Of a stretch of 64,000 nt of DNA, positions 14,526 to 57,006 are shown piece after piece. The stretch is from the sequence record NC_047754.1, one strand, 5' to 3'. The DNA is from Escherichia phage phiAPCEc03. The first letter of the stretch is position 1, and every line of letters starts with the position of its first letter. A model generated the notes under the pieces. The model did no database searches. It was not told the DNA's origin and saw only the letters and a program-made list of their open reading frames with translations. Position numbers and translations under genes: made by a program.

Positions 14526-17500
14526 ATGACTGATAAGCTAATACGAGAATTACTAATAGACGTTAAACAGAAGGGGGCAACCCGTACTGCAAAGTCTATT
14601 GAAAACGTATCTGATGCATTAGAAAATGCTGCTGCTGCTTCCGAACTGACAAATGAACAGTTAGGTAAAATGCCCAAAACTCTATATTCCATTGAGAGGG
14701 CAGCAGATAGAGCAGCGAAAAGTCTTACTAAAATGCAAGCTAGCAGAGGTATGCTTAGTATTACTAAATCTATTAATGATATAGGAGCTAAGTTAGATGA
14801 TCTCGCTATTACAATGATTGAAGTAGCAGATAAATTAGAAGTCGGATTTGATGGAGTTTCTAGATCTGTTAAAACAATGGGCAATGATGTTGCAGCTGCA
14901 ACAGAGAAGGTTCAAGATAGGTTATATGATACTAATAGGGCTTTAGGAGGTACGGCTAAAGGCTTTAATGATACTACTGGTGCTGCTGGTAGAGCTTCTA
15001 GAGCTATTGGTAATACTTCTGGTTCAGCACGTGGTGCAACTCGTGATTTTGCAGCAATGGCTAAAATTGGTGGTAGTTTACCTATTATGTACGCAGCTCT
15101 TGCTTCCAATATCTTCGTTCTGCAATCCGCGTTCGAACAACTTAAACTAGGTGATCAGTTAAATCGTCTAGAAAAATTTGGTGTTATAGTAGGTACTCAG
15201 ACTGGTACTCCTGTTCAGTCTCTTGCTAGATCACTACAAGAAGCTGCCGGGTATGCTATCTCCTTTGAAGAAGCAATGAGACAAGCATCCTCAGCGTCCG
15301 CTTATGGCTTTGATGCCGAACAACTTAATAAATTTGGTTTAGTAGCTCGTCGTGCTGCTGCTGTTCTTGGTGTTGATATGACTGATGCACTTAACCGTGT
15401 AATTAGGGGCGTATCTAAACAAGAAATCGAACTTCTGGATGAACTTGGTGTCACCATCCGTCTTAATGACGCATACGCTGATTATGTTAAACAGTTAAAT
15501 GCTGCAAACACAGGTATAACATATAATGTTAATAGTCTTACCACTTTCCAGAAACAACAAGCATACGCTAACGCGGTAATTGCTGAATCTACTAAGCGGT
15601 TTGGCTACCTAGATGAAGTACTACGTGCAACTCCATGGGAGCAATTTGCTGCTAATGCAGATGCTGCACTAAGAAAAATACAACAAGCTGCTGCTAAGTA
15701 TTTAGGGCCAGTAATTGATGCTATCAACACAGTATTTTATACATCTCAGGCTTCTATATCTGCTGAGGCAGCTAGAGCTCAAGAAAAAACTAATAGACAG
15801 ATAGACCCTACCAACGTTGGTGCTGTTGCTTTAAGTTTAGCTGCTTCTGAAGAAGGCTATAATAAAGCTCTAGATATGTATAAGGAATCTCTTGATAAGC
15901 GTAATAAGCTAAAATCTGAGTTCGATAAACGAATGGAACAAGCAGATTTCTATACAAAACTAGCTATACGTCAAGTTGGTGAAGGTATTCCTGTTGGTCT
16001 TGCAGCAGCAGGTGCTTCGGAGGCCAATAAGCAATTTGTAGCAGAAACTGCAGCTATGGGTTTACAAGTAACTAGACTTGGTAAAGAAGTAGAGGATTCT
16101 ACTGAAAACCTCAATGCTTGGAAATCAGCGTATCAAGCTGCTGGAGCTGCTGCTGCAAAAGCTAACCCCGAGTTTCAGAAGCAAATTAATCTACAGAGAG
16201 ATACTACTGATCCTGATGCTGTATACGATTTTAACTCTACTGTATTAAAAGGACTAACTGAGCAGCAGAAAGCGTACAATCAGACTAAGAAAACTGCTAG
16301 TGACTTAGCTAATGATATACAGAACGTTGCTCAGAATACAGATACTGCTGCTAAAACTAGTACTACGTTAGCAGATGCTATAAAAAACATAGAATCTCTA
16401 TCTCTAGGTACGGGTAAAAGTGCAGATGAGTATGTTAAAAATCTTAATTTAGGCTATAATACGTTATCTGAGATGAAAACTGCTTCTCAGGCCTTGTCCG
16501 AGTATGTTAAACTAACTGGTAATGAAACTAAAAATCAGTTAGCAGTTCAACAGAAAATAGCCGATGTGTATAATCAAACTAAGGATAAGGAAAAGGCTCA
16601 GGAAGCTGGTAGACGTTTAGAGTTGCAACAGTTAGAAGAGCAAGAAGCTGCTTTACGCCGTGTTCTTCAAACAAACCAGGGAAATAAAGCTGTTGAGAAA
16701 GAAATTGAAAAAATTCAGCTGGAGAAACTTAAACTTACCAATCAGGGTATGGAGGCCCAGAAGAAGATTAAGGATTATACAGATAAAATCCTGGGTGTAG
16801 ATCGTGAGATAGCTCTTCTGAATGACCGCACTATGACTACTACTCAATATAGATTAGCTCAGCTAAAACTAGAACTAACTATAGAGAAAGAGAAGTACGA
16901 ATGGTATACAAAACAAGCGGACAAACAGAAAGAGGCAGAACAGTCTAGACGTGCTCAAGCACAAATAAGCAGAGAAATATGGGAAGCGGAGAAACAGGCA
17001 ACTGCCTCACATGTATCAGCTCTCATGGATGCGCTAGAGGTCAGCCAAACGCAGAGGAATGTTACTGGTCAATCTCAAATTCTTACTGAAAGATTATCCA
17101 TTCTGCAGCAACAGCTGGAGCTGTCTAAGGGCAATACTGAGGAAGAAATTAAATATCGTAATGAGATTTATAAAACTTCGGCGGCCTTAGAGCAGCTTAG
17201 AAAACAGAGAGATATCCAGATGCAGCAACAGGTGGGATCTTCTGTAGGTGCTGTATATACTCCTACAACTGGACTATCTGGGGAGGATAAAGATTTTGCT
17301 GATATGCAAAATAGAATGGCTTCTTATGATCAGGCAATCTCTAAACTATCTGAATTAAATTCTGAAGCAACCGCTGTGGCTCAAAGTATGGGTAACTTAA
17401 CTAACGCTATGATTCAGTTCTCTCAGGGATCCCTAGATACTACCTCCTTGATTGCTTCTGGCATGCAAACTGTATCTTCTATGATTCAGTATAGTACTAG

Positions 17501-42424: not shown

Positions 42425-43192
42425 TTATTCAGCAGCCGCAGCTTTTGCATCCAGTTTAGCACGCTTAGCGGCACCATCATAGTCCTTAGCAACCAGACCA
42501 CGACGAGACAGCATAGATTTAACACCGCGCTCAGATTTACCAGTTTTCTCAGCGATCTCAGCAACAGTCATGTTAACCAGATCCAGACCTTCTAACAGAT
42601 CTTCACGAGTTTTAGCACTTGAGGTTTCCTGTACCGGCATAGCAGCGATACGACCTTCACGAAGCAGGCTCAGAGCTTTACCACGGATCTGCTTAATATT
42701 GCGACCGAAGTGAGCAGCGATAGCTTCAATAGTAGCACCAGCAACAACCTGATTAACAAAATCAGTTTCTTCATCCGGAGTGAAGGAACGAACAGCAGCA
42801 GCTTTTTCGGTTGGCTTAACAGAAGCGGTCATTTCCAGACTCAGGATCTTACCCTGTACCTGTTTAGCACCGAACTGACCACCAGCTACAGCAGCAGCGA
42901 TTTCAGCATAGGTATACTGACCAGCATGAGCGTTCAGGAAATCAACCAGTTCAGCTTCCTGCTCAGGAGTCCATGGGGATTTCTGTACTTCGTTGGCTTT
43001 CTGTACTTCAAAACCTTCTTTACGCAGTTTAGAACCAACAGAGCGGGCAGTAACATCTTTGCCAGTTTCAGCAGCCAGTTCAGCAGCGATAGCAGCTACT
43101 TGTTCTTGAGAGATTACAGAAACACCCAGAGCAGTGGCTTTTGCTTTCAGAGACTCGGTTACACCTTCTACGTTCCAGTTCAGTTTAGACAT
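42425..43192 (-). CDS. abundant DNA-binding protein with three HTH-like repeats (possibly T5 D5-like)
   Basis: 255 aa; three similar segments (YTYAEIAAAVAGGQFGAKQVQGKILSL / ATIEAIAAHFGRNIKQIRGKALSL / MTVAEIAEKTGKSERGVKSMLSRRGL); high-expression codon usage; Ala-rich. Confidence 0.45.
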   Translation of the reverse strand: MSKLNWNVEGVTESLKAKATALGVSVISQEQVAAIAAELAAETGKDVTARSVGSKLRKEGFEVQKANEVQKSPWTPEQEAELVDFLNAHAGQYTYAEIAAAVAGGQFGAKQVQGKILSLEMTASVKPTEKAAAVRSFTPDEETDFVNQVVAGATIEAIAAHFGRNIKQIRGKALSLLREGRIAAMPVQETSSAKTREDLLEGLDLVNMTVAEIAEKTGKSERGVKSMLSRRGLVAKDYDGAAKRAKLDAKAAAAE

Positions 43193-43958
43193 TATTATTT
43201 TTCTCCAATAGTTCTTTAATCGACAGGATTTCTATCCCATTCGTTTCGGCTTTCTTATAAGATGAGGAAGAACGTTTTGATTCATCCTCACAGATCAGGT
43301 ATTTGACATCTTTGGTAACGGATTTCTTAACCGTATATCCTAGACCTTCTAAATAGTTTGTTGCATCCGTTCTATTTGCAAAGTCTTGCAAAGATCCGGT
43401 AATACATACCGCGATTCCATTTGGCTGGGCAACTAAATCATCAGTAACGACGGTTTTAGCTTTAGCACCAGTTGAGAATTTCCACGGTAATTCGATAACA
43501 TCCTTGCCTTGTGGGGAATTTAGCCAGGCTTTATAGTTTTCTCCAGCCTTGCCGTCAGCCTTCACATCGTGGAAGCTAGTGCAATTTTGGGATAATTTCT
43601 TTGCTGCAACCTCTCCGATTAGAGGGATTCCTAAAGAACCGAGAACTGAACCAAAGTCAATGTCTCCGCGAACTTTAGTATTTAATTCGCTAATTAACTT
43701 AGCGGCAACCTTGCTACCCACGGCTCTAACCAAATCTTCTTCGGTTAGGTAAAATAGTTCTGAAATCTTCGTCAGCTCCAGCTTCTCAATAGTTTTTGGA
43801 CCAAAGCCCTTTAACTTAATTTTTGTACAGAAGTTCTCAATTAACTTACTTGATTGCGCTGGACAGTTGGACTTATTCCGACAGAATAATTGTCCGTTGA
43901 CAAGATCTAGCTTAGAACCACAAGAGGGACATTGTGTTGGAATTTCGATTTTCATCAA
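43185..43958 (-). CDS. ligB: NAD-dependent DNA ligase, C-terminal subunit (Zn finger, HhH, BRCT-like)
   Basis: 257 aa; CPSCGSKLDLVNGQLFCRNKSNC zinc finger near N-terminus, helix-hairpin-helix-like segments; separate ORF from adenylation domain. Confidence 0.7.
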   Translation of the reverse strand: MMKIEIPTQCPSCGSKLDLVNGQLFCRNKSNCPAQSSKLIENFCTKIKLKGFGPKTIEKLELTKISELFYLTEEDLVRAVGSKVAAKLISELNTKVRGDIDFGSVLGSLGIPLIGEVAAKKLSQNCTSFHDVKADGKAGENYKAWLNSPQGKDVIELPWKFSTGAKAKTVVTDDLVAQPNGIAVCITGSLQDFANRTDATNYLEGLGYTVKKSVTKDVKYLICEDESKRSSSSYKKAETNGIEILSIKELLEKNNNV

Positions 43959-44157: not shown

Positions 44158-45129
44158 TTAATCGTATACTCGCTCTACTATACACGGGATTACACCACCA
44201 GCACGAATTACTCGAATCTGGCAACCGATCTCTAGATCAAGAGAGTTAATATAATCAACGTTATTAAGAGTCGCCTTAACAATTGTAGCATCATCAATAA
44301 TTACCGGTTCGAAATAACCAACTGGAGTTACTTTACCAGAGGCCCCTACCTGCCATTCAACTTTAGTAAGAGTTGTAATCTCGCCTTCTTCATCCTCTTT
44401 AATAGCGAAGGCTCCACGAGGGAATTTATTAGTCCAGCCCTCTCGGAAGAATTTGTTGTTATCATTAATACGAACAACTTTACCGTCCGTCGGAATCCAT
44501 TTAAAGAAGGAACGCACATTAACAACTGTTAAGAAGTTCTCATTCTCTAGCCAAAGCATATCTTTTAAATATGCTTCTGTAATACCTACAGATTCAGCAG
44601 AACACTGGATACCGTATGCGACGAAGATTAAACCACCTTCCCCTATACGTTGTACGAAATCATCGCTATCTTTGAGGTTAATAGCACCAGAGGCAAAGTT
44701 ACGTTTATTTTCTACTTCTTTTGTAATTAGAACTTCACCAGTGATTTGAGTAGGTACTTTTTGGGAAATCTTTTGAGGGATGTTCAGCAATCTTACGTTG
44801 CTTGTGACATCATTCCCTAGAATACCATTACCACGAGTTAGTGCTTGAACAAATTCGCCATTAATATATAACAGAGAAATCGCACAACCATCTAACTTAT
44901 CAGTTTCTACCTGACCTAACGGGTTGAACGGAGGTTTATCTCCACGATTATAATAAACTTTCTGTAAAGAATACATACGATACAGATGTGGAATATCACC
45001 CTTAGGCCCGATCTCTTCTTCTAATGGAAATCTTTTAATCAGACGATCATATTCTTCGTCAGAGATTAAAGACATACCTTGATAATATGCTTCTTGACAG
45101 CGTTTAATAAAGTCTTTTACATTAGTCAT
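44158..45129 (-). CDS. ligA: NAD-dependent DNA ligase, N-terminal adenylation subunit
   Basis: 323 aa; adenylation motif KLDGCAISLLY (KxDG) and OB-fold region; stops 199 nt before the Zn-finger subunit. Confidence 0.75.
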   Translation of the reverse strand: MTNVKDFIKRCQEAYYQGMSLISDEEYDRLIKRFPLEEEIGPKGDIPHLYRMYSLQKVYYNRGDKPPFNPLGQVETDKLDGCAISLLYINGEFVQALTRGNGILGNDVTSNVRLLNIPQKISQKVPTQITGEVLITKEVENKRNFASGAINLKDSDDFVQRIGEGGLIFVAYGIQCSAESVGITEAYLKDMLWLENENFLTVVNVRSFFKWIPTDGKVVRINDNNKFFREGWTNKFPRGAFAIKEDEEGEITTLTKVEWQVGASGKVTPVGYFEPVIIDDATIVKATLNNVDYINSLDLEIGCQIRVIRAGGVIPCIVERVYD

Positions 45130-51582: not shown

Positions 51583-51975
51583 TCATTCATCATTTAGGCC
51601 TGGAACATAAATCCCAACACGATTTAATTGTTCTTTAGCTTCTGCGAGAATATCTGGAGTGTACTCCCAAATATCATCTTCCACCTGTAAAAGATGGGGC
51701 GAACAACCATCATCCGGCACACGACATATGGCCAAACCACGTGGATGGAATATAGAGAAGTTTAGGGCAACAATTAAACCCATAGCGGATAATTCATTCC
51801 AGTCCAATTCCCATTCCCCCGCGTAGCCGGATAGGAAAACACCAACACAGGGATCATCTATTTGCTGCTCCGGAAAAGTGAAGGAGGCTTGTCTTACCCC
51901 CAACCAACGTTGTAGCAGCTTCTCCGCACGTTTCACCAAACTAGGATCAATCTGACGCCAATATACTTGTTCCAT
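51583..51975 (-). CDS. hypothetical protein, tandem paralog B
   Basis: 130 aa; aligns with neighbour at 51985 (PCVGVFL..W.EL..MGLIVALNF..F.P......YVPGL versus PCIGLIV..WKELDEMGLVFALNYKLFMP....YMIPGL). Confidence 0.5.
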   Translation of the reverse strand: MEQVYWRQIDPSLVKRAEKLLQRWLGVRQASFTFPEQQIDDPCVGVFLSGYAGEWELDWNELSAMGLIVALNFSIFHPRGLAICRVPDDGCSPHLLQVEDDIWEYTPDILAEAKEQLNRVGIYVPGLNDE

Positions 51976-51984
51976 TATGCCCTC

Positions 51985-52413
51985 TTAAGCAGTTAAACCT
52001 GGGATCATATACCCGAAACGTCGAAGTTTCTGAATCCCCTCATCTACTTCTTCCGGTGAGTAAGACCAACCATAACGTTCATTAACCTGAAAACCAGGAG
52101 ATTCACTAGTTTTATAGTTAACAACGAGGCGATGCTTAGCAGGCATAAACAGCTTATAGTTTAACGCAAAAACTAAGCCCATTTCATCTAACTCTTTCCA
52201 GCCGACAATCTCTTCAAGACCCTCCTCTACCTGAACAATTAAACCAATACAGGGGGCCTCATCAATATCATCTTTAAAAGCAAAGGAGATTTCGTTATTC
52301 TCACACCATATTTTCAAAGAGTTAATAGCCTCATTATACAGGCTAGCTGGGAGAGTACGCCAAAAGTTAACCAAAATTGGGTTAGCTTCTTTAGAGAATA
52401 CATTATTGAACAT
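51985..52413 (-). CDS. hypothetical protein, tandem paralog A
   Basis: 142 aa; see paralog B. Confidence 0.5.
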   Translation of the reverse strand: MFNNVFSKEANPILVNFWRTLPASLYNEAINSLKIWCENNEISFAFKDDIDEAPCIGLIVQVEEGLEEIVGWKELDEMGLVFALNYKLFMPAKHRLVVNYKTSESPGFQVNERYGWSYSPEEVDEGIQKLRRFGYMIPGLTA

Positions 52414-52415
52414 AT

Positions 52416-52955
52416 TTACACCTTAAATTGTTGCAAGGATTTACACATTTCAAGATCTGGGCTAAATTCTAGCATATAGCTAACAGCTTTTAAATCTTGA
52501 AGATTTATCCCAGTCCTACCGTTGACTATAACCGTTGGATACTGATACATCATAGCACCCGCATCATCAAGCACACACCAATGTTTGAGCTTATGCTTTT
52601 CAACGAAGCGAAGAACAGAATTACCCCTAGATAATCCACCACCAGTAAAATCCGTTGTACCAAGAAAACGATCGATAAGACCTAATCCGGTCATAATCTG
52701 AACGTTCTCCATCTCATTTCTGACAGAAAACCAAGATGATACTCCGACAATCATTATCGGAGAAGGACGAATAAAGTCCTGAAAAGCCTTGAGAAGCGGT
52801 TTGAAAACCCAGTCACTTCCAAAGAAAATCTTTTCATCATCAGGTGCATGATGGTGGGAGATGCTCGAATTGAGCACCCCATCAATGTCTAGAAAAATAA
52901 TTGGAGTATTACTTATTTCCACCAGTAGCATCCCACGTCCAGACTTTAACTTCAT
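52416..52955 (-). CDS. HAD-superfamily phosphatase-like protein
   Basis: 179 aa; motif I FLDIDGVL near N-terminus; downstream VLDDAG-type acidic motif. Confidence 0.6.
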   Translation of the reverse strand: MKLKSGRGMLLVEISNTPIIFLDIDGVLNSSISHHHAPDDEKIFFGSDWVFKPLLKAFQDFIRPSPIMIVGVSSWFSVRNEMENVQIMTGLGLIDRFLGTTDFTGGGLSRGNSVLRFVEKHKLKHWCVLDDAGAMMYQYPTVIVNGRTGINLQDLKAVSYMLEFSPDLEMCKSLQQFKV

Positions 52956-53094
52956 CAGTAAAAGGAACCGGAACCTTCAATTCACCCTTACCCCACATAA
53001 CAGACAGGAACAGAGAATAAATGGTAATCATACCAATTAGGTTGACAAACCATACTAGACCTTTCCAGATACCCTTAAAAATCTTCTTTATCAT
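52909..53094 (-). CDS. small membrane protein
   Basis: 61 aa; hydrophobic helix LVWFVNLIGMITIYSLFLSVMW; start overlaps stop of upstream small ORF (ATGA). Confidence 0.4.
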   Translation of the reverse strand: MIKKIFKGIWKGLVWFVNLIGMITIYSLFLSVMWGKGELKVPVPFTDEVKVWTWDATGGNK

Positions 53095-53261
53095 TCGTTC
53101 TCCTCTAGGAACGTATCATACTCAACCGTATCAACATATATGACACCATAGTCATCGGATTTATAGTCCATTTCCCACAGCTCACAGCGATAGCACCAAC
53201 TACCATCCGCCCATACAAATATATCATCGGGATGTGTATACACAGATTTAACTATGGACAT
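53091..53261 (-). CDS. small hypothetical protein (56 aa), paralog of 53252..53437
   Basis: Hand translation MSIVKSVYTHPDDIFVWADGSWCYRCELWEMDYKSDDYGVIYVDTVEYDTFLEENE; shares D-IF-x-GSWCYR motif with neighbour; below ORF-track cutoff. Confidence 0.35.
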   Translation of the reverse strand: MSIVKSVYTHPDDIFVWADGSWCYRCELWEMDYKSDDYGVIYVDTVEYDTFLEENE

Positions 53262-53437
53262 ATCTGTTTCCCCTCATCTCCAGAGGATAACCATATGTTC
53301 TCTGTAGTATAGATAATTTTATATGTGTTGCCCAACCTTTCTTTAACATTAGGAAATCTATAGGCAAACCTATAACACCACGTGCCAGACTCAGTTATAA
53401 AAATATCCCATTCATTATTTCTTGCTTCCCGACACAT
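53252..53437 (-). CDS. small hypothetical protein
   Basis: 61 aa; EWDIFITESGTWCYRF motif shared with 53091..53261. Confidence 0.35.
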   Translation of the reverse strand: MCREARNNEWDIFITESGTWCYRFAYRFPNVKERLGNTYKIIYTTENIWLSSGDEGKQICP

Positions 53438-54233
53438 AAGGTCTACCCTCTAAATGAGCTTCTACACGAGCAATAAAATCAGGATCACTGAAAGCATCTA
53501 CCGCACCTTTACTCCAGTAAGGGATACCGCGTTCTTCCAGCTGGTACATCTCACTACGAGTCATACCTTGATAGCCCGGTTCCGCCGCTAGGGCACTATC
53601 ATAGTAGTTAACAACCATTAGCTTGGCAGCAGTCAAATTAAGAACAGGAAATAATTCCCAGTAGAAGTTAATTACTTGGTTAGAGCAACCAATCACAACG
53701 ATCATATCTTGACTGGTAATACCATCAAAAACATTGTACATTTCTGCGTATGCAGGAGCATGCTCTCCAAAGAAGATTACATTAGGTTTAACCCATTTAT
53801 AATCATCTGGATCAATAGAATTATATCCTACATCAATAATCCGTTTATTACTACTACTGTAGCTATCCGCTACAACAACCTCTTTTAAGTATCCATGAAT
53901 GTGCAGAATGTCACTATGTGGAACTCCAGCACGCTCAATAAGGTCATCAACGTTGGTAGTCAAGTTTACTATTTGACCGGGATATTGTTTATACCATTCG
54001 CCAATACGCAAATGCGCAAGATTGGGTTCAACAGTTTTTAGCTCTTCACGACGCTTGTTGTAAAACATATGGGTTTTATGATAAAAATTACCACGAAAGG
54101 CATGAATATTACATACTTCTTCTAGATCATAATCATCCCACAGTGCTTTACCACTAGCAGTATCAGTACGGAAGGCTCGTACACCACTTTCAACACTCAA
54201 ACCTGCACCGCTAATAATAATTAATCTACGCAT
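53415..54233 (-). CDS. Sir2-family (sirtuin-like) NAD-dependent protein, zinc-ribbon-less
   Basis: 272 aa; sirtuin signature motifs GAGLSVESGVRAFR (cf. GAGISxxSGIPxFR), TTNVDDL (cf. TQNID), HIHG catalytic His, NVIFFGE, VIGCS; no CxxC...CxxC zinc module between HG and FFGE. Confidence 0.7.
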   Translation of the reverse strand: MRRLIIISGAGLSVESGVRAFRTDTASGKALWDDYDLEEVCNIHAFRGNFYHKTHMFYNKRREELKTVEPNLAHLRIGEWYKQYPGQIVNLTTNVDDLIERAGVPHSDILHIHGYLKEVVVADSYSSSNKRIIDVGYNSIDPDDYKWVKPNVIFFGEHAPAYAEMYNVFDGITSQDMIVVIGCSNQVINFYWELFPVLNLTAAKLMVVNYYDSALAAEPGYQGMTRSEMYQLEERGIPYWSKGAVDAFSDPDFIARVEAHLEGRPYVSGSKK

Positions 54234-54447
54234 TTTTCACCTGTTCTCTGAAGTTTTGCCCAATACTGCCTAATAGCTCAGCTAATTCTTTATTGCCTTT
54301 CTCCATTAAGGTATTAGCAATAACTTCTAGCATAGTAGCGCAGGATTCAACACCATCCTTATAGCCAGTTTCCCAGTGCTGCATTAATGCATTTTCCAAA
54401 GCGGCGTTTAACCCCTTATCTGGTAGCATCGGCTTCGAGAATGCCAT
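54226..54447 (-). CDS. hypothetical protein
   Basis: 73 aa ORF. Confidence 0.35.
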   Translation of the reverse strand: MAFSKPMLPDKGLNAALENALMQHWETGYKDGVESCATMLEVIANTLMEKGNKELAELLGSIGQNFREQVKNA

Positions 54448-54619
54448 ACAGTTTCTCCTCTAGTTCCATAACACGATTTTCATAAGAGGCACGCAACTTT
54501 TCAATTGCCAGCGCACGCACTGTAACCTCATTAGAATTAATAGCTAATTGGGCCAGATCTTCTGTTTCCATACGTCCGTTGTAAATTAAGCGATATTTAA
54601 GATGTTTTACGTTTTTCAT
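54416..54619 (-). CDS. hypothetical protein
   Basis: 67 aa ORF. Confidence 0.35.
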   Translation of the reverse strand: MKNVKHLKYRLIYNGRMETEDLAQLAINSNEVTVRALAIEKLRASYENRVMELEEKLYGILEADATR

Positions 54620-54990
54620 ACTTTTAGCTCCGCTCCAATATCCTCATAGAAGTAATCGTAGTAAACCTGCTTAATATGATGTTTAATAACAGAAGAGAAA
54701 TCCTCTGTGCCGTTAGAGGTAACATTAAATACTTGTAAGTGGTTCCAATATACAAATTCTAGAGTCTCTTTTAAGTCTTCAGGTTCTTCATATATAGGAT
54801 TATAGACAGTAATATCTAATTCTTGCTCTACGAAGTCACCTAGTAATGTAGGATATCCAATACCTCCTAGCAATGAGTAATCACCTGTAGCAGCAAAAAT
54901 AGCTTCCTGAATAGTATCTACTCCTAAGTGATAATGTCCTAACTTAGATACAACAATAAATGGTTTTAGGTCCATATACCCTCCTCTCAA
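54616..54990 (-). CDS. hypothetical protein
   Basis: 124 aa acidic ORF with SD GAGAGGAGGG and upstream promoter. Confidence 0.45.
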   Translation of the reverse strand: MRGGYMDLKPFIVVSKLGHYHLGVDTIQEAIFAATGDYSLLGGIGYPTLLGDFVEQELDITVYNPIYEEPEDLKETLEFVYWNHLQVFNVTSNGTEDFSSVIKHHIKQVYYDYFYEDIGAELKV

Positions 54991-55031: not shown

Positions 55032-55066
55032 ATAAAATAAAAGCCAGGTCGACTAGCAACCCGGCT
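55032..55066 (-). terminator. intrinsic terminator after nrdD
   Basis: Minus-strand hairpin AGCCGGG-ttgctagtcga-CCTGGCT followed by TTTTATTTTATTT. Confidence 0.6.
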
Positions 55067-56977: not shown

Positions 56978-57006
56978 ATTATAACTCATTCGAGGGCGGA
57001 TGTCAA
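56978..57006 (-). promoter_or_regulatory. sigma70 promoter for nrdD (-35 TTGACA, 17 nt, -10 TATAAT)
   Basis: Perfect consensus hexamers on minus strand with 17 nt spacer. Confidence 0.65.

Follow-up and report, generated by a model that had tools for sequence, protein, structure and literature searches.

Described phage and cellular sirtuins

The gene analysed here is a well-known early gene of T5-type phages and is annotated as 'Sir2-like' in hundreds of phages. The T5-type 'Sir2-like protein' of SP15 (HWA82_gp120), slur09 (cobB), SPC35 and DT571/2 (sir2) is the same gene with the same neighbours, and our copy shows no difference of substance from that family, of which it is an ordinary member. 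The absence of the zinc site in a Vibrio phage Sir2 was reported in 2016 on the basis of in-silico modelling only, and T5 was listed there as a carrier (Skliros et al., PMC5107563). The Sir2/CobB proteins of Vibrio phages KVP40, phiSt2 and phi-Grn1 belong to the same broad clade of phage proteins (39% identity and E 2e-38 in tblastn against phi-Grn1), but they are more distant and shorter, and occur in schizoT4-like myoviruses with the NadV/NatV NAD salvage pathway. For exactly this sirtuin clade, a role in RNA repair was predicted by Iyer et al. in 2022, who name the sirtuin and Swiss-army-knife HAD phosphatase of phage SP15 as the third of their neighbourhood types (PMC9503650, section 3.7.3). 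In a search of the literature, no experimental study of a phage sirtuin from this clade came up. The observation made here is thus real but already known, and the window adds nothing beyond the existing annotation and literature; because the idea of an RNA-directed sirtuin is in print as a prediction, only its demonstration would be new.

Outside phages, the closest proteins in both sequence and fold are Escherichia coli CobB, SIRT5 and Sir2Af1. CobB (PDB 1S5P, 6RXJ) and human and zebrafish SIRT5 have the same fold as the phage protein at ~25-32% identity. They share with it the GAGxS, FR, NxD, HG and FGE motifs, as well as the Y-x-x-R and small-residue pocket that binds acidic acyl-lysines. 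Unlike CobB and SIRT5, the phage protein has no zinc ligands, a shorter ribbon tip, Thr for the Gln of TQNxD and VINF for V-x-P; in members from T5-like phages there is an additional insert at aa ~210-232. It also differs in being phage-encoded and linked to genes for RNA-end processing. The defence SIR2 NADases (ThsA, DSR1/2, SIR2-HerA and SIR2-APAZ/pAgo) belong to the same Rossmann-type sirtuin superfamily and likewise have no zinc cysteines. The phage protein differs from them in having retained the acyl pocket and the two-lobed small domain typical of canonical sirtuins.

Identification of the Sir2-like gene

The window is a stretch of 64,000 nucleotides from Escherichia phage phiAPCEc03 (NC_047754.1), a Tequintavirus (T5-like) genome. 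The Sir2-like ORF encodes 272 aa from an ATG start, with boundaries exactly as given in the first-pass annotation. A Shine-Dalgarno sequence, AGGTGA, lies 5 nt before the ATG, and the start overlaps the stop codon of the preceding ORF (ATGCGTAG). The gene and its motifs are as follows; residues are called invariant on the basis of an alignment of 39 Sir2-like sequences reaching down to ~54% identity (A1).

53415..54233, minus strand: Sir2-like gene, T5 'Sir2-like protein' family, PHROG 2162 (PF02146 and PHROG 2162 matches)
54168..54209, minus strand: NAD-binding motif GAGLSVESGVRAFR, aa 9-22 (sequence and A1)
54048..54065, minus strand: FYNKRR, aa 57-62, the class III Y-x-x-R (Y58, R61; aligned to CobB Y92/R95)
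53940..53960, minus strand: TTNVDDL, aa 92-98, with N94 and D96 kept and Thr (T93) at the Gln position of TQNxD
53892..53903, minus strand: HIHG, aa 111-114, which contains the catalytic His113 and aligns to HMHG of CobB
53784..53894, minus strand: cysteine-free remnant of the zinc ribbon, aa 114-150 (three-stranded sheet predicted by AF2, no Cys)
53763..53789, minus strand: KPNVIFFGE, aa 149-157, the 'FGE' loop of the substrate cleft (A1 and alignment to Sir2Tm)
53682..53696, minus strand: VIGCS, aa 180-184, the G-x-S NAD-ribose motif (A1)

The similarity of the ORF to the Sir2 family is, by sequence, far beyond chance. It matches Pfam PF02146 (SIR2) at E 1.7e-24 with 87.2 bits (cut-off 24) over profile positions 1-178 of 180, and PHROG 2162 at E 4.8e-120. 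It is 95-98.5% identical to annotated Sir2 genes of T5-like phages, and protein identity within the T5-type family named above is 90-98.5%. All five motifs quoted in the first-pass annotation are present, among them NVIFFGE at aa 151-157, and its assignment to the Sir2 family with an intact NAD-binding and catalytic signature holds. Invariant residues include G9, A10, G11, S13, S16, G17, F21 and R22 of the NAD-binding motif, N94 and D96, H113 and G114, and K149, P150, V152, F154, F155 and E157 of the FGE loop. The same is true of G182 and S184 and, in the VINF sequence (aa 187-190) that follows VIGCS at the usual sirtuin V-x-P position, of V187, I188 and F190. Y58 and R61 are invariant both in A1 and in 120 of 120 homologues. 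T93 stands in place of the usual Gln throughout the clade.

Fold and zinc ribbon

The AlphaFold model of the protein (pLDDT 89.5, pTM 0.88) has the two-domain sirtuin fold, with a Rossmann domain and a small helical/ribbon domain. The best 50 Foldseek matches are all sirtuins, CobB 1S5P being matched at E 2e-18 with a TM score of 0.84 normalised to CobB, and the profile match to CobB reaches E 6e-30. C41 aligns to the small-residue position occupied by CobB A76 and SIRT5 A86, and the class III acyl pocket (C41, Y58-x-x-R61) is invariant in the clade. We conclude from sequence and model that the protein is probably a class III sirtuin (CobB/SIRT5 lineage) that is catalytically competent and independent of zinc.

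The first-pass annotation described the protein as lacking the zinc ribbon. The part of this claim that concerns the ligands is borne out: the protein has only two cysteines, C41 and C183, neither of them in the zinc module (no Cys at aa 114-150) and no CxxC, and CxxC is found in 0 of 120 close homologues, so that the loss is clade-wide. The ribbon itself, however, is still confidently predicted as a three-stranded sheet (strands 114-122, 131-134 and 147-152, pLDDT 90-97); the four zinc ligands are missing, and the module is kept according to the model. V121 and S124/S126 occupy the position of the first CxxC. The second knuckle either has been deleted (7 residues, by comparison with CobB and Sir2Tm) or corresponds to D141-P-D-D144 (by alignment to Sir2Af1). 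The Gln-to-Thr change in TQNxD tracks zinc loss among 150 cluster representatives (Gln with zinc site, 79; Thr without, 35; Gln without, 13; Thr with, 8). Whether sirtuins can do without their 'structural' zinc is a question for which this clade offers a natural test.

Genomic context in T5-like phages

In T5-like phages, this one included, the Sir2-like gene stands between nrdD and the gene for the origin-binding helicase. The surrounding features are:

54226..54990, minus strand: three small ORFs of 124, 67 and 73 aa upstream of the Sir2-like gene (conserved in T5-like phages)
52909..53437, minus strand: three small ORFs of 61, 56 and 61 aa between the Sir2-like gene and the phosphatase gene (ORF calls)
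52416..52955, minus strand: HAD-family phosphatase of the 'Swiss-army-knife' RNA-repair type, with DxD in FLDIDGVLN (PF18143 HAD_SAK_2)
51583..52413, minus strand: two tandem DUF7415 paralogues downstream of the phosphatase gene (homologues of T5.106/T5.107)

The HAD ORF matches PF18143 at E 4.9e-20 (cut-off 27.5) and lies 460 nt downstream of the Sir2-like gene; its true start may be internal, since RefSeq relatives annotate 168 aa. The intervening ORFs, two of which are tandem paralogues (phrog_5116), each overlap their neighbours, suggesting translational coupling. The Sir2 and HAD_SAK_2 genes are also paired in phage SP15, which has ~95% DNA identity to the window, and in Erwinia phage KEY. 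Two of six T5-like lineages keep Sir2 and have no HAD gene, and in phage DT57C both were lost together by one deletion. An odd phrog_18062 match was traced to the DT57C deletion chimera. The DUF7415 pair (PF24187, E 5e-36 and 4e-32) is found in 5/6 T5-like lineages. A gene for an NAD-dependent DNA ligase lies ~9 kb from the Sir2-like gene.

BLASTP revealed no real similarity between the Sir2 and HAD proteins, and the HAD protein had no match among solved structures. There are no tRNA genes within the window, the phage tRNA array being located outside it, and NAD-salvage genes (NadR/PnuC, the NARP3 pathway) are neither present in the window nor annotated in SP15. In a scan for promoters and terminators, the site counts were not above those of shuffled controls.

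Distribution and context in other phages

The clade is large and found mainly in big virulent phages. Relatives of the Sir2-like protein are encoded in 976 of 50,697 phage records (~2%), the carriers being T5-like, rV5/V5-like, Mydovirus, KVP40-like and jumbo phages, and many carrier phages are candidates for phage therapy. Erwinia phage KEY has the reverse order, with HAD first, then an ORF of 118 aa and Sir2 last, and the linkage of Sir2 and HAD therefore survives rearrangement. Raoultella phage Ro1 has a series of genes for Rnl1, cREC, an AAA_33 kinase, SIR2 and a DNA ligase, whose stop and start codons touch or overlap; two further loci (L005 and L006) are variants of this cluster, and a 607-kb jumbo phage contig encodes Rnl1 1.2 kb upstream of Sir2.

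Among 25 Sir2 loci, dereplicated at 80% identity, 13 have a gene for RNA-end healing or sealing within 4 kb of Sir2. Six loci, all Phapecoctavirus-like, have no recognisable RNA-repair neighbour, and Pfam scans of the conserved neighbours in this subgroup gave DUFs only or nothing. The neighbourhoods agree with those described by Iyer et al. (PMC9503650): their third type is the locus analysed here, with no macrodomain in either, and their second type (Rnl1, cREC, kinase, calcineurin-like) is reproduced at Ro1, L005 and L006. What goes beyond their prediction is that the HAD partner is absent in some T5-like lineages and that a large subgroup has no RNA-repair neighbours.

A possible role in RNA-end repair

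Sequence and model together make it very probable that the protein is an active NAD-dependent enzyme of the sirtuin type, and neither a defence-type NADase nor a decoy. What the analysis shows is the family, the fold, the conservation of residues and the linkage of genes; substrate, chemistry and biological role are inferences. The leading, still tentative, proposal, put forward by Iyer et al. in 2022 for this very clade, is that the enzyme carries out the NAD-consuming step in a phage module for RNA-end repair. NAD+ would be bound in the Rossmann cleft, nicotinamide would be expelled, and an anionic substrate would receive C1'' of ADP-ribose on an oxygen nucleophile, with His113 activating the ribose 2'-OH. 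By an action like that of KptA/Tpt1, an RNA 2'-phosphate or terminal phosphate would attack NAD+, and the phosphate would then leave as ADP-ribose 1'',2''-cyclic phosphate. The enzyme would work with the neighbouring HAD_SAK_2 phosphatase and, in other phages, with the Rnl1 RNA ligase, the cREC phosphatase, a polynucleotide-kinase-like P-loop protein and a metallophosphoesterase.

KptA/Tpt1 likewise uses up NAD+ and sets nicotinamide free, the group that is removed being passed to ADP-ribose, and the mechanisms of sirtuins and Tpt1 are parallel step by step. KptA/Tpt1 is proposed here as a functional analogue; it has the unrelated fold of the ART superfamily and no sequence similarity to the phage protein. 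It is possible, if rather doubtful, that the clade constitutes the first lineage of sirtuins acting on nucleic acids, zinc-free and with Thr for Gln, which would use NAD+ to strip or cap RNA phosphates held in the class III Y-x-x-R pocket, now taking a phosphate in place of a carboxylate. With similar reserve we suggest that 2'- or terminal phosphates would be handled in this way during phage tRNA/RNA repair, in convergence on KptA/Tpt1.

The proposal of RNA-end repair draws on the gene linkage: the HAD_SAK_2 gene three small ORFs downstream, the persistence of this pairing in Erwinia phage KEY, the joint loss of both genes in DT57C, the Rnl1-cREC-kinase-Sir2-ligase operons elsewhere with RNA-end genes near about half of the loci, and the lack of an adjacent macrodomain. 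Against it, neither an RNA ligase nor a polynucleotide kinase is listed in the fully annotated close relative SP15, and T5-like phages would therefore lack a self-contained repair pathway. The missing HAD gene in two lineages and the six loci with no RNA-repair neighbour also speak against it, and phage early regions cluster accessory genes of unrelated function as well. The phage family is acidic (median pI 5.2, net charge ~-11), a property shared with the CobB core but not with typical RNA-binding enzymes, and Tpt1 is basic; computed pI and net charge being a rough guide to RNA binding, the argument against the proposal is weak and not decisive. A1 contains no clade-specific conserved basic residues, and the acyl-lysine pocket residues of desuccinylases (C41, Y58, R61, V95, V152, F155) are all retained, as in an ordinary deacylase.

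Alternative activities

Almost as likely as RNA-end repair is protein lysine deacylation of the ordinary CobB/SIRT5 kind, in which the enzyme would take succinyl, malonyl, glutaryl or acetyl groups off host or phage proteins early in infection. Reactivation of acetyl-CoA synthetase or a reshaping of host metabolism or transcription are possible effects, and nicotinamide would be recycled via phage or host NAD salvage. The nearest relatives in sequence and fold are all lysine deacylases, the class III specificity triad (C41, Y58, R61) is invariant, and the KPNVIFFGE loop is nearly identical to RPNIVFFGE of Sir2Tm. The protein is acidic like the CobB core, and the alignment shows no sign of retooling toward polyanions. 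In place of the structural zinc, the ribbon would simply be held by its hydrophobic packing. Skliros et al. came to the same conclusion in 2016 from a model of the Vibrio phage homologue, which is 39% identical (PMC5107563). Yet a deacylase leaves unexplained why the gene sits in operons with RNA ligase, kinase and phosphatase genes in several unrelated phage groups, as well as the clade-wide Q93T, the lost proline of V-x-P and the loss of zinc. The scores are far below the NCBIfam equivalog cut-offs for CobB (at best 99.7 bits against 243 for NF001753, and 89 against 320 for NF040867), and there is no known target. With a decision between an RNA-directed sirtuin and a viral desuccinylase/deacetylase, it would become clear whether nucleic acids are within the reach of sirtuin chemistry, and on what large virulent phages use up the NAD+ that is rebuilt by phage NAD+-reconstitution pathways such as NARP1-3.

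From the zinc-less Sir2 domain, best known from NAD-consuming effectors of bacterial anti-phage systems, the first-pass annotation had reasoned, as a hypothesis, that the protein could be an NADase or a decoy, and this reasoning is not supported. The profile search it proposed did return canonical Sir2, PF02146 being the only Pfam match at E<=1, but no SIR2_2 match, and none of 5027 PADLOC defence models matched at E<=1. The structure comparison it proposed likewise recovered a sirtuin fold with its Rossmann domain, and no defence SIR2 appeared among the best 50 fold matches. On these grounds we rule out a defence-type SIR2. The protein is a stand-alone single domain, and no fused or adjacent defence sensor or partner (SLOG, HerA, APAZ/pAgo or a large C-terminal domain) is found at the locus. 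A sirtuin of the SirTM type, in which QG replaces the catalytic HG (PMC4518038), is also ruled out, as HG is kept and a macrodomain is absent both from the flanking ORFs and from the annotated SP15 genome. From the earlier list, deacylase and ADP-ribosyltransferase activities may still apply.

T4 takes over its host with Alt, ModA and ModB, and an NAD+ glycohydrolase or a mono-ADP-ribosyltransferase acting on protein or nucleic acid may serve host takeover, superinfection exclusion, or the destruction or generation of NAD-derived immune signals. We regard such an enzyme as unlikely here. Sirtuins can ADP-ribosylate, with SirTM as the precedent (PMC4518038), and in phage ECO340P2 a sponge gene of the Acb2/Tad1 type is found 4 kb away from the homologue. 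One jumbo phage homologue is flanked by DUF4326 and nucleoside 2-deoxyribosyltransferase-like genes. Both of these gene types are tied to the processing of ADP-ribose or nucleotides. On the other side stand the lack of similarity to defence NADase SIR2 families and of the SirTM hallmarks, and the retained acyl or anion pocket, which argues for a specific co-substrate; a free-running NADase would moreover be counterproductive, because the phage depends on its own NAD-dependent DNA ligase.

It is highly improbable that the protein is, as the first-pass annotation also suggested, an immune decoy, that is, a catalytically dead sponge for NAD-derived signals or a protein titrating a host immune sensor: the general precedent of phage sponges and a reading of zinc loss as decay would favour this, but the fold is predicted with confidence, and the catalytic and NAD-binding residues are invariant in the 39 sequences and 120 homologues, as is the class III acyl pocket in the clade, so that the protein is probably an active enzyme. 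The truly decayed copy in DT57C, a 90-aa deletion remnant, looks quite different.

Family and fold of the Sir2 protein

We identified a 272-aa open reading frame (ORF) on the minus strand at 53415..54233, exactly where the first-pass annotation had placed it, and all five motifs quoted there are present. The gene has the ribosome-binding site AGGTGA and overlaps its neighbours on both sides, through a ATGCGTAG start/stop upstream and by 23 nt downstream. Judged by its sequence, the protein is a genuine Sir2 domain, given its score against Pfam PF02146 (E 1.7e-24; 87 bits versus a cut-off of 24); no other Pfam family was detected at E<=1. It also matches PHROG 2162, labelled ‘Sir2’ (E 4.8e-120).

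The proposal that a zinc-less Sir2 domain is likely to be of the defence type fails. The best solved relative by sequence is E. coli CobB (1e-17 with the single sequence, 6e-30 with the family profile), followed by Sir2Af1/2 and SIRT5. An AlphaFold model built from a 39-sequence alignment (pLDDT 89.5, pTM 0.88) shows disorder only in the cofactor-binding loop (aa 23-29) and at the C-terminal tip. Foldseek comparison of this model with the PDB placed CobB first (E 2e-18, TM 0.84 on CobB length), with SIRT5, Sir2Af1 and Sir2Tm below it and no defence SIR2 among the best 50 matches. PADLOC models gave no match to the protein, and NCBIfam CobB-type models match with scores far under their cut-offs. 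We therefore conclude that the protein is a canonical sirtuin, though a divergent one, that descends from class III, and not a ThsA/DSR-type domain. SirTM proteins, in which QG replaces HG and which are linked to macrodomains (Rack et al. 2015; PMC4518038), differ on both counts.

The sequence derives from a T5-like phage (genus Tequintavirus). Megablast matched 1.7 kb around the gene to 443 phage records, with 95-97% identity over the Sir2 region in the Salmonella and Escherichia phages PH204, slur09 and SP15; these records label the gene ‘Sir2 (NAD-dependent deacetylase)’, ‘cobB’ or ‘sirtuin-5’. A tblastn search found relatives encoded in 976 of 50,697 phage records, spanning T5-like, Vequintavirus, Mydovirus, Phapecoctavirus, Vibrio KVP40-like (39% identity in Vibrio phage phi-Grn1) and jumbo phages.

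Loss of the zinc site

The protein contains two cysteines, C41 and C183, and no CxxC anywhere in its 272 residues; the motif was found in 0 of 120 close homologues. The first-pass annotation was right that the cysteine ligands are absent, but the zinc ribbon described there as lacking is predicted to persist without them: strands 114-122, 131-134 and 147-152 of the AlphaFold model occupy its place with pLDDT 90-97. V121 and S124/S126 occupy the positions of the first ligand pair. For the second knuckle, comparison with CobB and Sir2Tm shows a 7-residue deletion, whereas alignment to Sir2Af1 places D141-P-D-D144 there; the CobB part of the former comparison agrees with the alignments obtained in the sequence and profile searches of solved structures.

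We searched a family profile against 1.84 billion cluster representatives and analysed the best 150 (P0115 and P0121-P0269). In raw counts that ignore phylogeny, zinc loss accompanies a Gln-to-Thr change in TQNxD (Gln with zinc site, 79; Thr without, 35; Gln without, 13; Thr with, 8). The association may mark functional coupling or simply a single clade. Among these representatives the zinc-free lineage is broad: at 50% identity it falls into dozens of clusters. One zinc-free TTN-type protein (P0283, in the cluster of P0129) lies on a 200-kb contig annotated as a Neptunomonas phycophila MAG, which suggests that the lineage extends beyond viruses, perhaps to bacteria or prophages within them.

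Genomic neighbourhood

Downstream of Sir2 on the same strand are three small overlapping ORFs, the HAD-family phosphatase gene HAD_SAK_2 and two paralogues with the DUF7415 domain.

Features around the Sir2 gene
57006..56978, minus strand: sigma-70 consensus TTGACA-17 nt-TATAAT (12/12), just upstream of nrdD
55066..55042, minus strand: 10-bp GC-rich hairpin with T-run, directly after the nrdD stop
53252..53437, minus strand: small paralogue 2, 61 aa, phrog_5116
53091..53261, minus strand: small paralogue 1, 56 aa, phrog_5116
51583..51975 and 51985..52413, minus strand: tandem DUF7415 paralogues, two domain copies each

The 179-aa HAD protein, encoded at 52416..52955 on the minus strand, matches PF18143, ‘HAD domain in Swiss Army Knife RNA repair proteins’ (E 4.9e-20), and its DxD motif is intact. 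The tandem phrog_5116 pair between Sir2 and HAD shares the motif W..G(S/T)WCYR, and the DUF7415 genes stay beside Sir2 even in T5-like lineages without HAD. Given this consensus and hairpin on either side of nrdD, expression of the Sir2 block may require read-through or a promoter of a kind not recognised by our promoter/terminator scan, whose total sites were not above shuffled controls.

T5 synteny around Sir2 includes NrdD, an origin-binding helicase and an NAD-dependent DNA ligase that is split. The ligase, which like Sir2 would draw on NAD+ and is encoded ~9 kb away on the same strand, consists of two ORFs ~200 nt apart (44158..45129 and 43185..43958, minus strand), with adenylation and OB domains in one and HhH and BRCT in the other; slur09 and SP15 have the same split.

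For a wider survey, 58 IMG/VR loci and five others were dereplicated at 80% Sir2 identity to 25 loci and their neighbours clustered. An RNA-end healing or sealing gene lies within 4 kb in 13 of the 25. In Raoultella phage Ro1 the series is metallophosphoesterase, Rnl1, cREC, AAA_33 kinase, SIR2 and ATP-dependent DNA ligase, with stops and starts touching or overlapping from Rnl1 to the ligase, and variants of this cluster occur in two further lineages. Erwinia phage KEY has HAD_SAK_2, a 118-aa ORF and SIR2, the opposite order to that seen here. On a 607-kb jumbo contig Rnl1 is 1.2 kb upstream of Sir2; on a 279-kb jumbo contig Sir2 is flanked by a nucleoside-deoxyribosyltransferase-like gene and one encoding DUF4326. 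In six Phapecoctavirus-like loci all the neighbours are DUFs or lack annotation.

The Mydovirus-like Ro1 locus (L003) and another Mydovirus-like Rnl1–Sir2 locus (L006) have NAPRTase-family and PRPP-synthetase-like genes (at 1-2209 of L003 and 1-1416 of L006) ~5 kb from the operon on the opposite strand, and Ro1 has a NADAR gene (14608-15114) ~6 kb downstream of it; this region is overall rich in NAD/ADP-ribose functions. The Phapecoctavirus-like Escherichia phage ECO340P2 carries an Acb2/Tad1-hairpin family gene (anti-CBASS/anti-Thoeris sponge type; 1940-2215 of its locus) ~4 kb upstream of its Sir2 homologue, the remaining neighbours being DUF7275/DUF7277 genes and unannotated ORFs.

Predicted role

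Family, fold, active-site conservation and gene linkage are observed, and from them we infer everything concerning the substrate. Most viral sirtuins were reported to form one clade tied to RNA repair, and their neighbourhoods were sorted into three types, of which the last is ‘typified by Escherichia phage SP15’ and includes a Swiss-army-knife HAD phosphatase; KptA-like removal of RNA 2'-phosphates was proposed (Iyer et al. 2022; PMC9503650). The Sir2/CobB proteins of Vibrio phages phiSt2, phi-Grn1 and KVP40 were earlier described as having no zinc site (Skliros et al. 2016; PMC5107563). The zinc-less Sir2 observation is correct but already known: the gene is routinely annotated, its zinc loss published and a specific proposal for the function of precisely this kind of locus in print. 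In the literature searched, no phage sirtuin belonging to the clade had been studied experimentally.

We tentatively favour a role in RNA repair, in which Sir2 would be coupled to the RNA-end enzymes, because the linkage to such enzymes recurs across gene orders and partner phosphoesterases, and because sirtuin chemistry parallels the Tpt1 reaction, onto which it maps stepwise. Recurrent linkage in varied orders is a signature of functional coupling. Within T5-like phages specifically the case is weak, since HAD is not always present (absent from two of six T5-like lineages in the 25-locus survey), the fully annotated SP15 genome lists neither RNA ligase nor polynucleotide kinase, the Sir2 family is acidic (pI ~5.2) and conserved residues in the 39-sequence alignment show no sign of polyanion adaptation. 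A sirtuin directed at RNA is somewhat unlikely, and would be notable if shown experimentally.

Alternatively, the protein may be a CobB/SIRT5-like lysine deacylase, a conservative reading that we consider almost as likely. In 39 sequences, down to ~54% identity, C41, Y58 and R61 (FYNxRR) are invariant and align to CobB A76, Y92 and R95, the three residues through which class III sirtuins favour acidic acyl-lysines. The clade differs from other sirtuins in T93, in VINF replacing V-x-P and in the lost cysteines. Skliros et al. modelled the Vibrio phage Sir2 on CobB, argued that it is still a deacetylase and named T5 as a carrier (PMC5107563). A free NADase or ADP-ribosyltransferase, suggested earlier by comparison with defence proteins, is improbable. 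Also invariant in the 39 sequences are NAD-binding G9, A10, G11, S13, S16, G17, F21 and R22; N94, D96 and catalytic H113-G114; K149, P150, V152, F154, F155 and E157 of the cleft loop; and G182 and S184. This pattern indicates a functional active site maintained by purifying selection, which makes the immune decoy of the first-pass annotation very improbable.

Deletion and mislabelling of the module

Phage DT57C encodes a 90-aa ‘defective sir2’, a chimera in which Sir2 aa ~172-213 are joined to the final ~38 aa of the HAD protein. A single deletion thus took the greater part of both sir2 and HAD together with the three small ORFs, and DT57C is viable; the Sir2–HAD module is accessory under laboratory conditions. 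The chimera (2480-2752 of the DT57C locus) is the likely origin of a mislabelled family, phrog_18062, which is named ‘Sir2 (NAD-dependent deacetylase)’ and matches the C-terminal half of HAD_SAK_2 (E 7e-58). Because of this match slur09 and SP15 have their HAD gene entered as ‘Sir2’ in RefSeq, and the annotation error is spreading.
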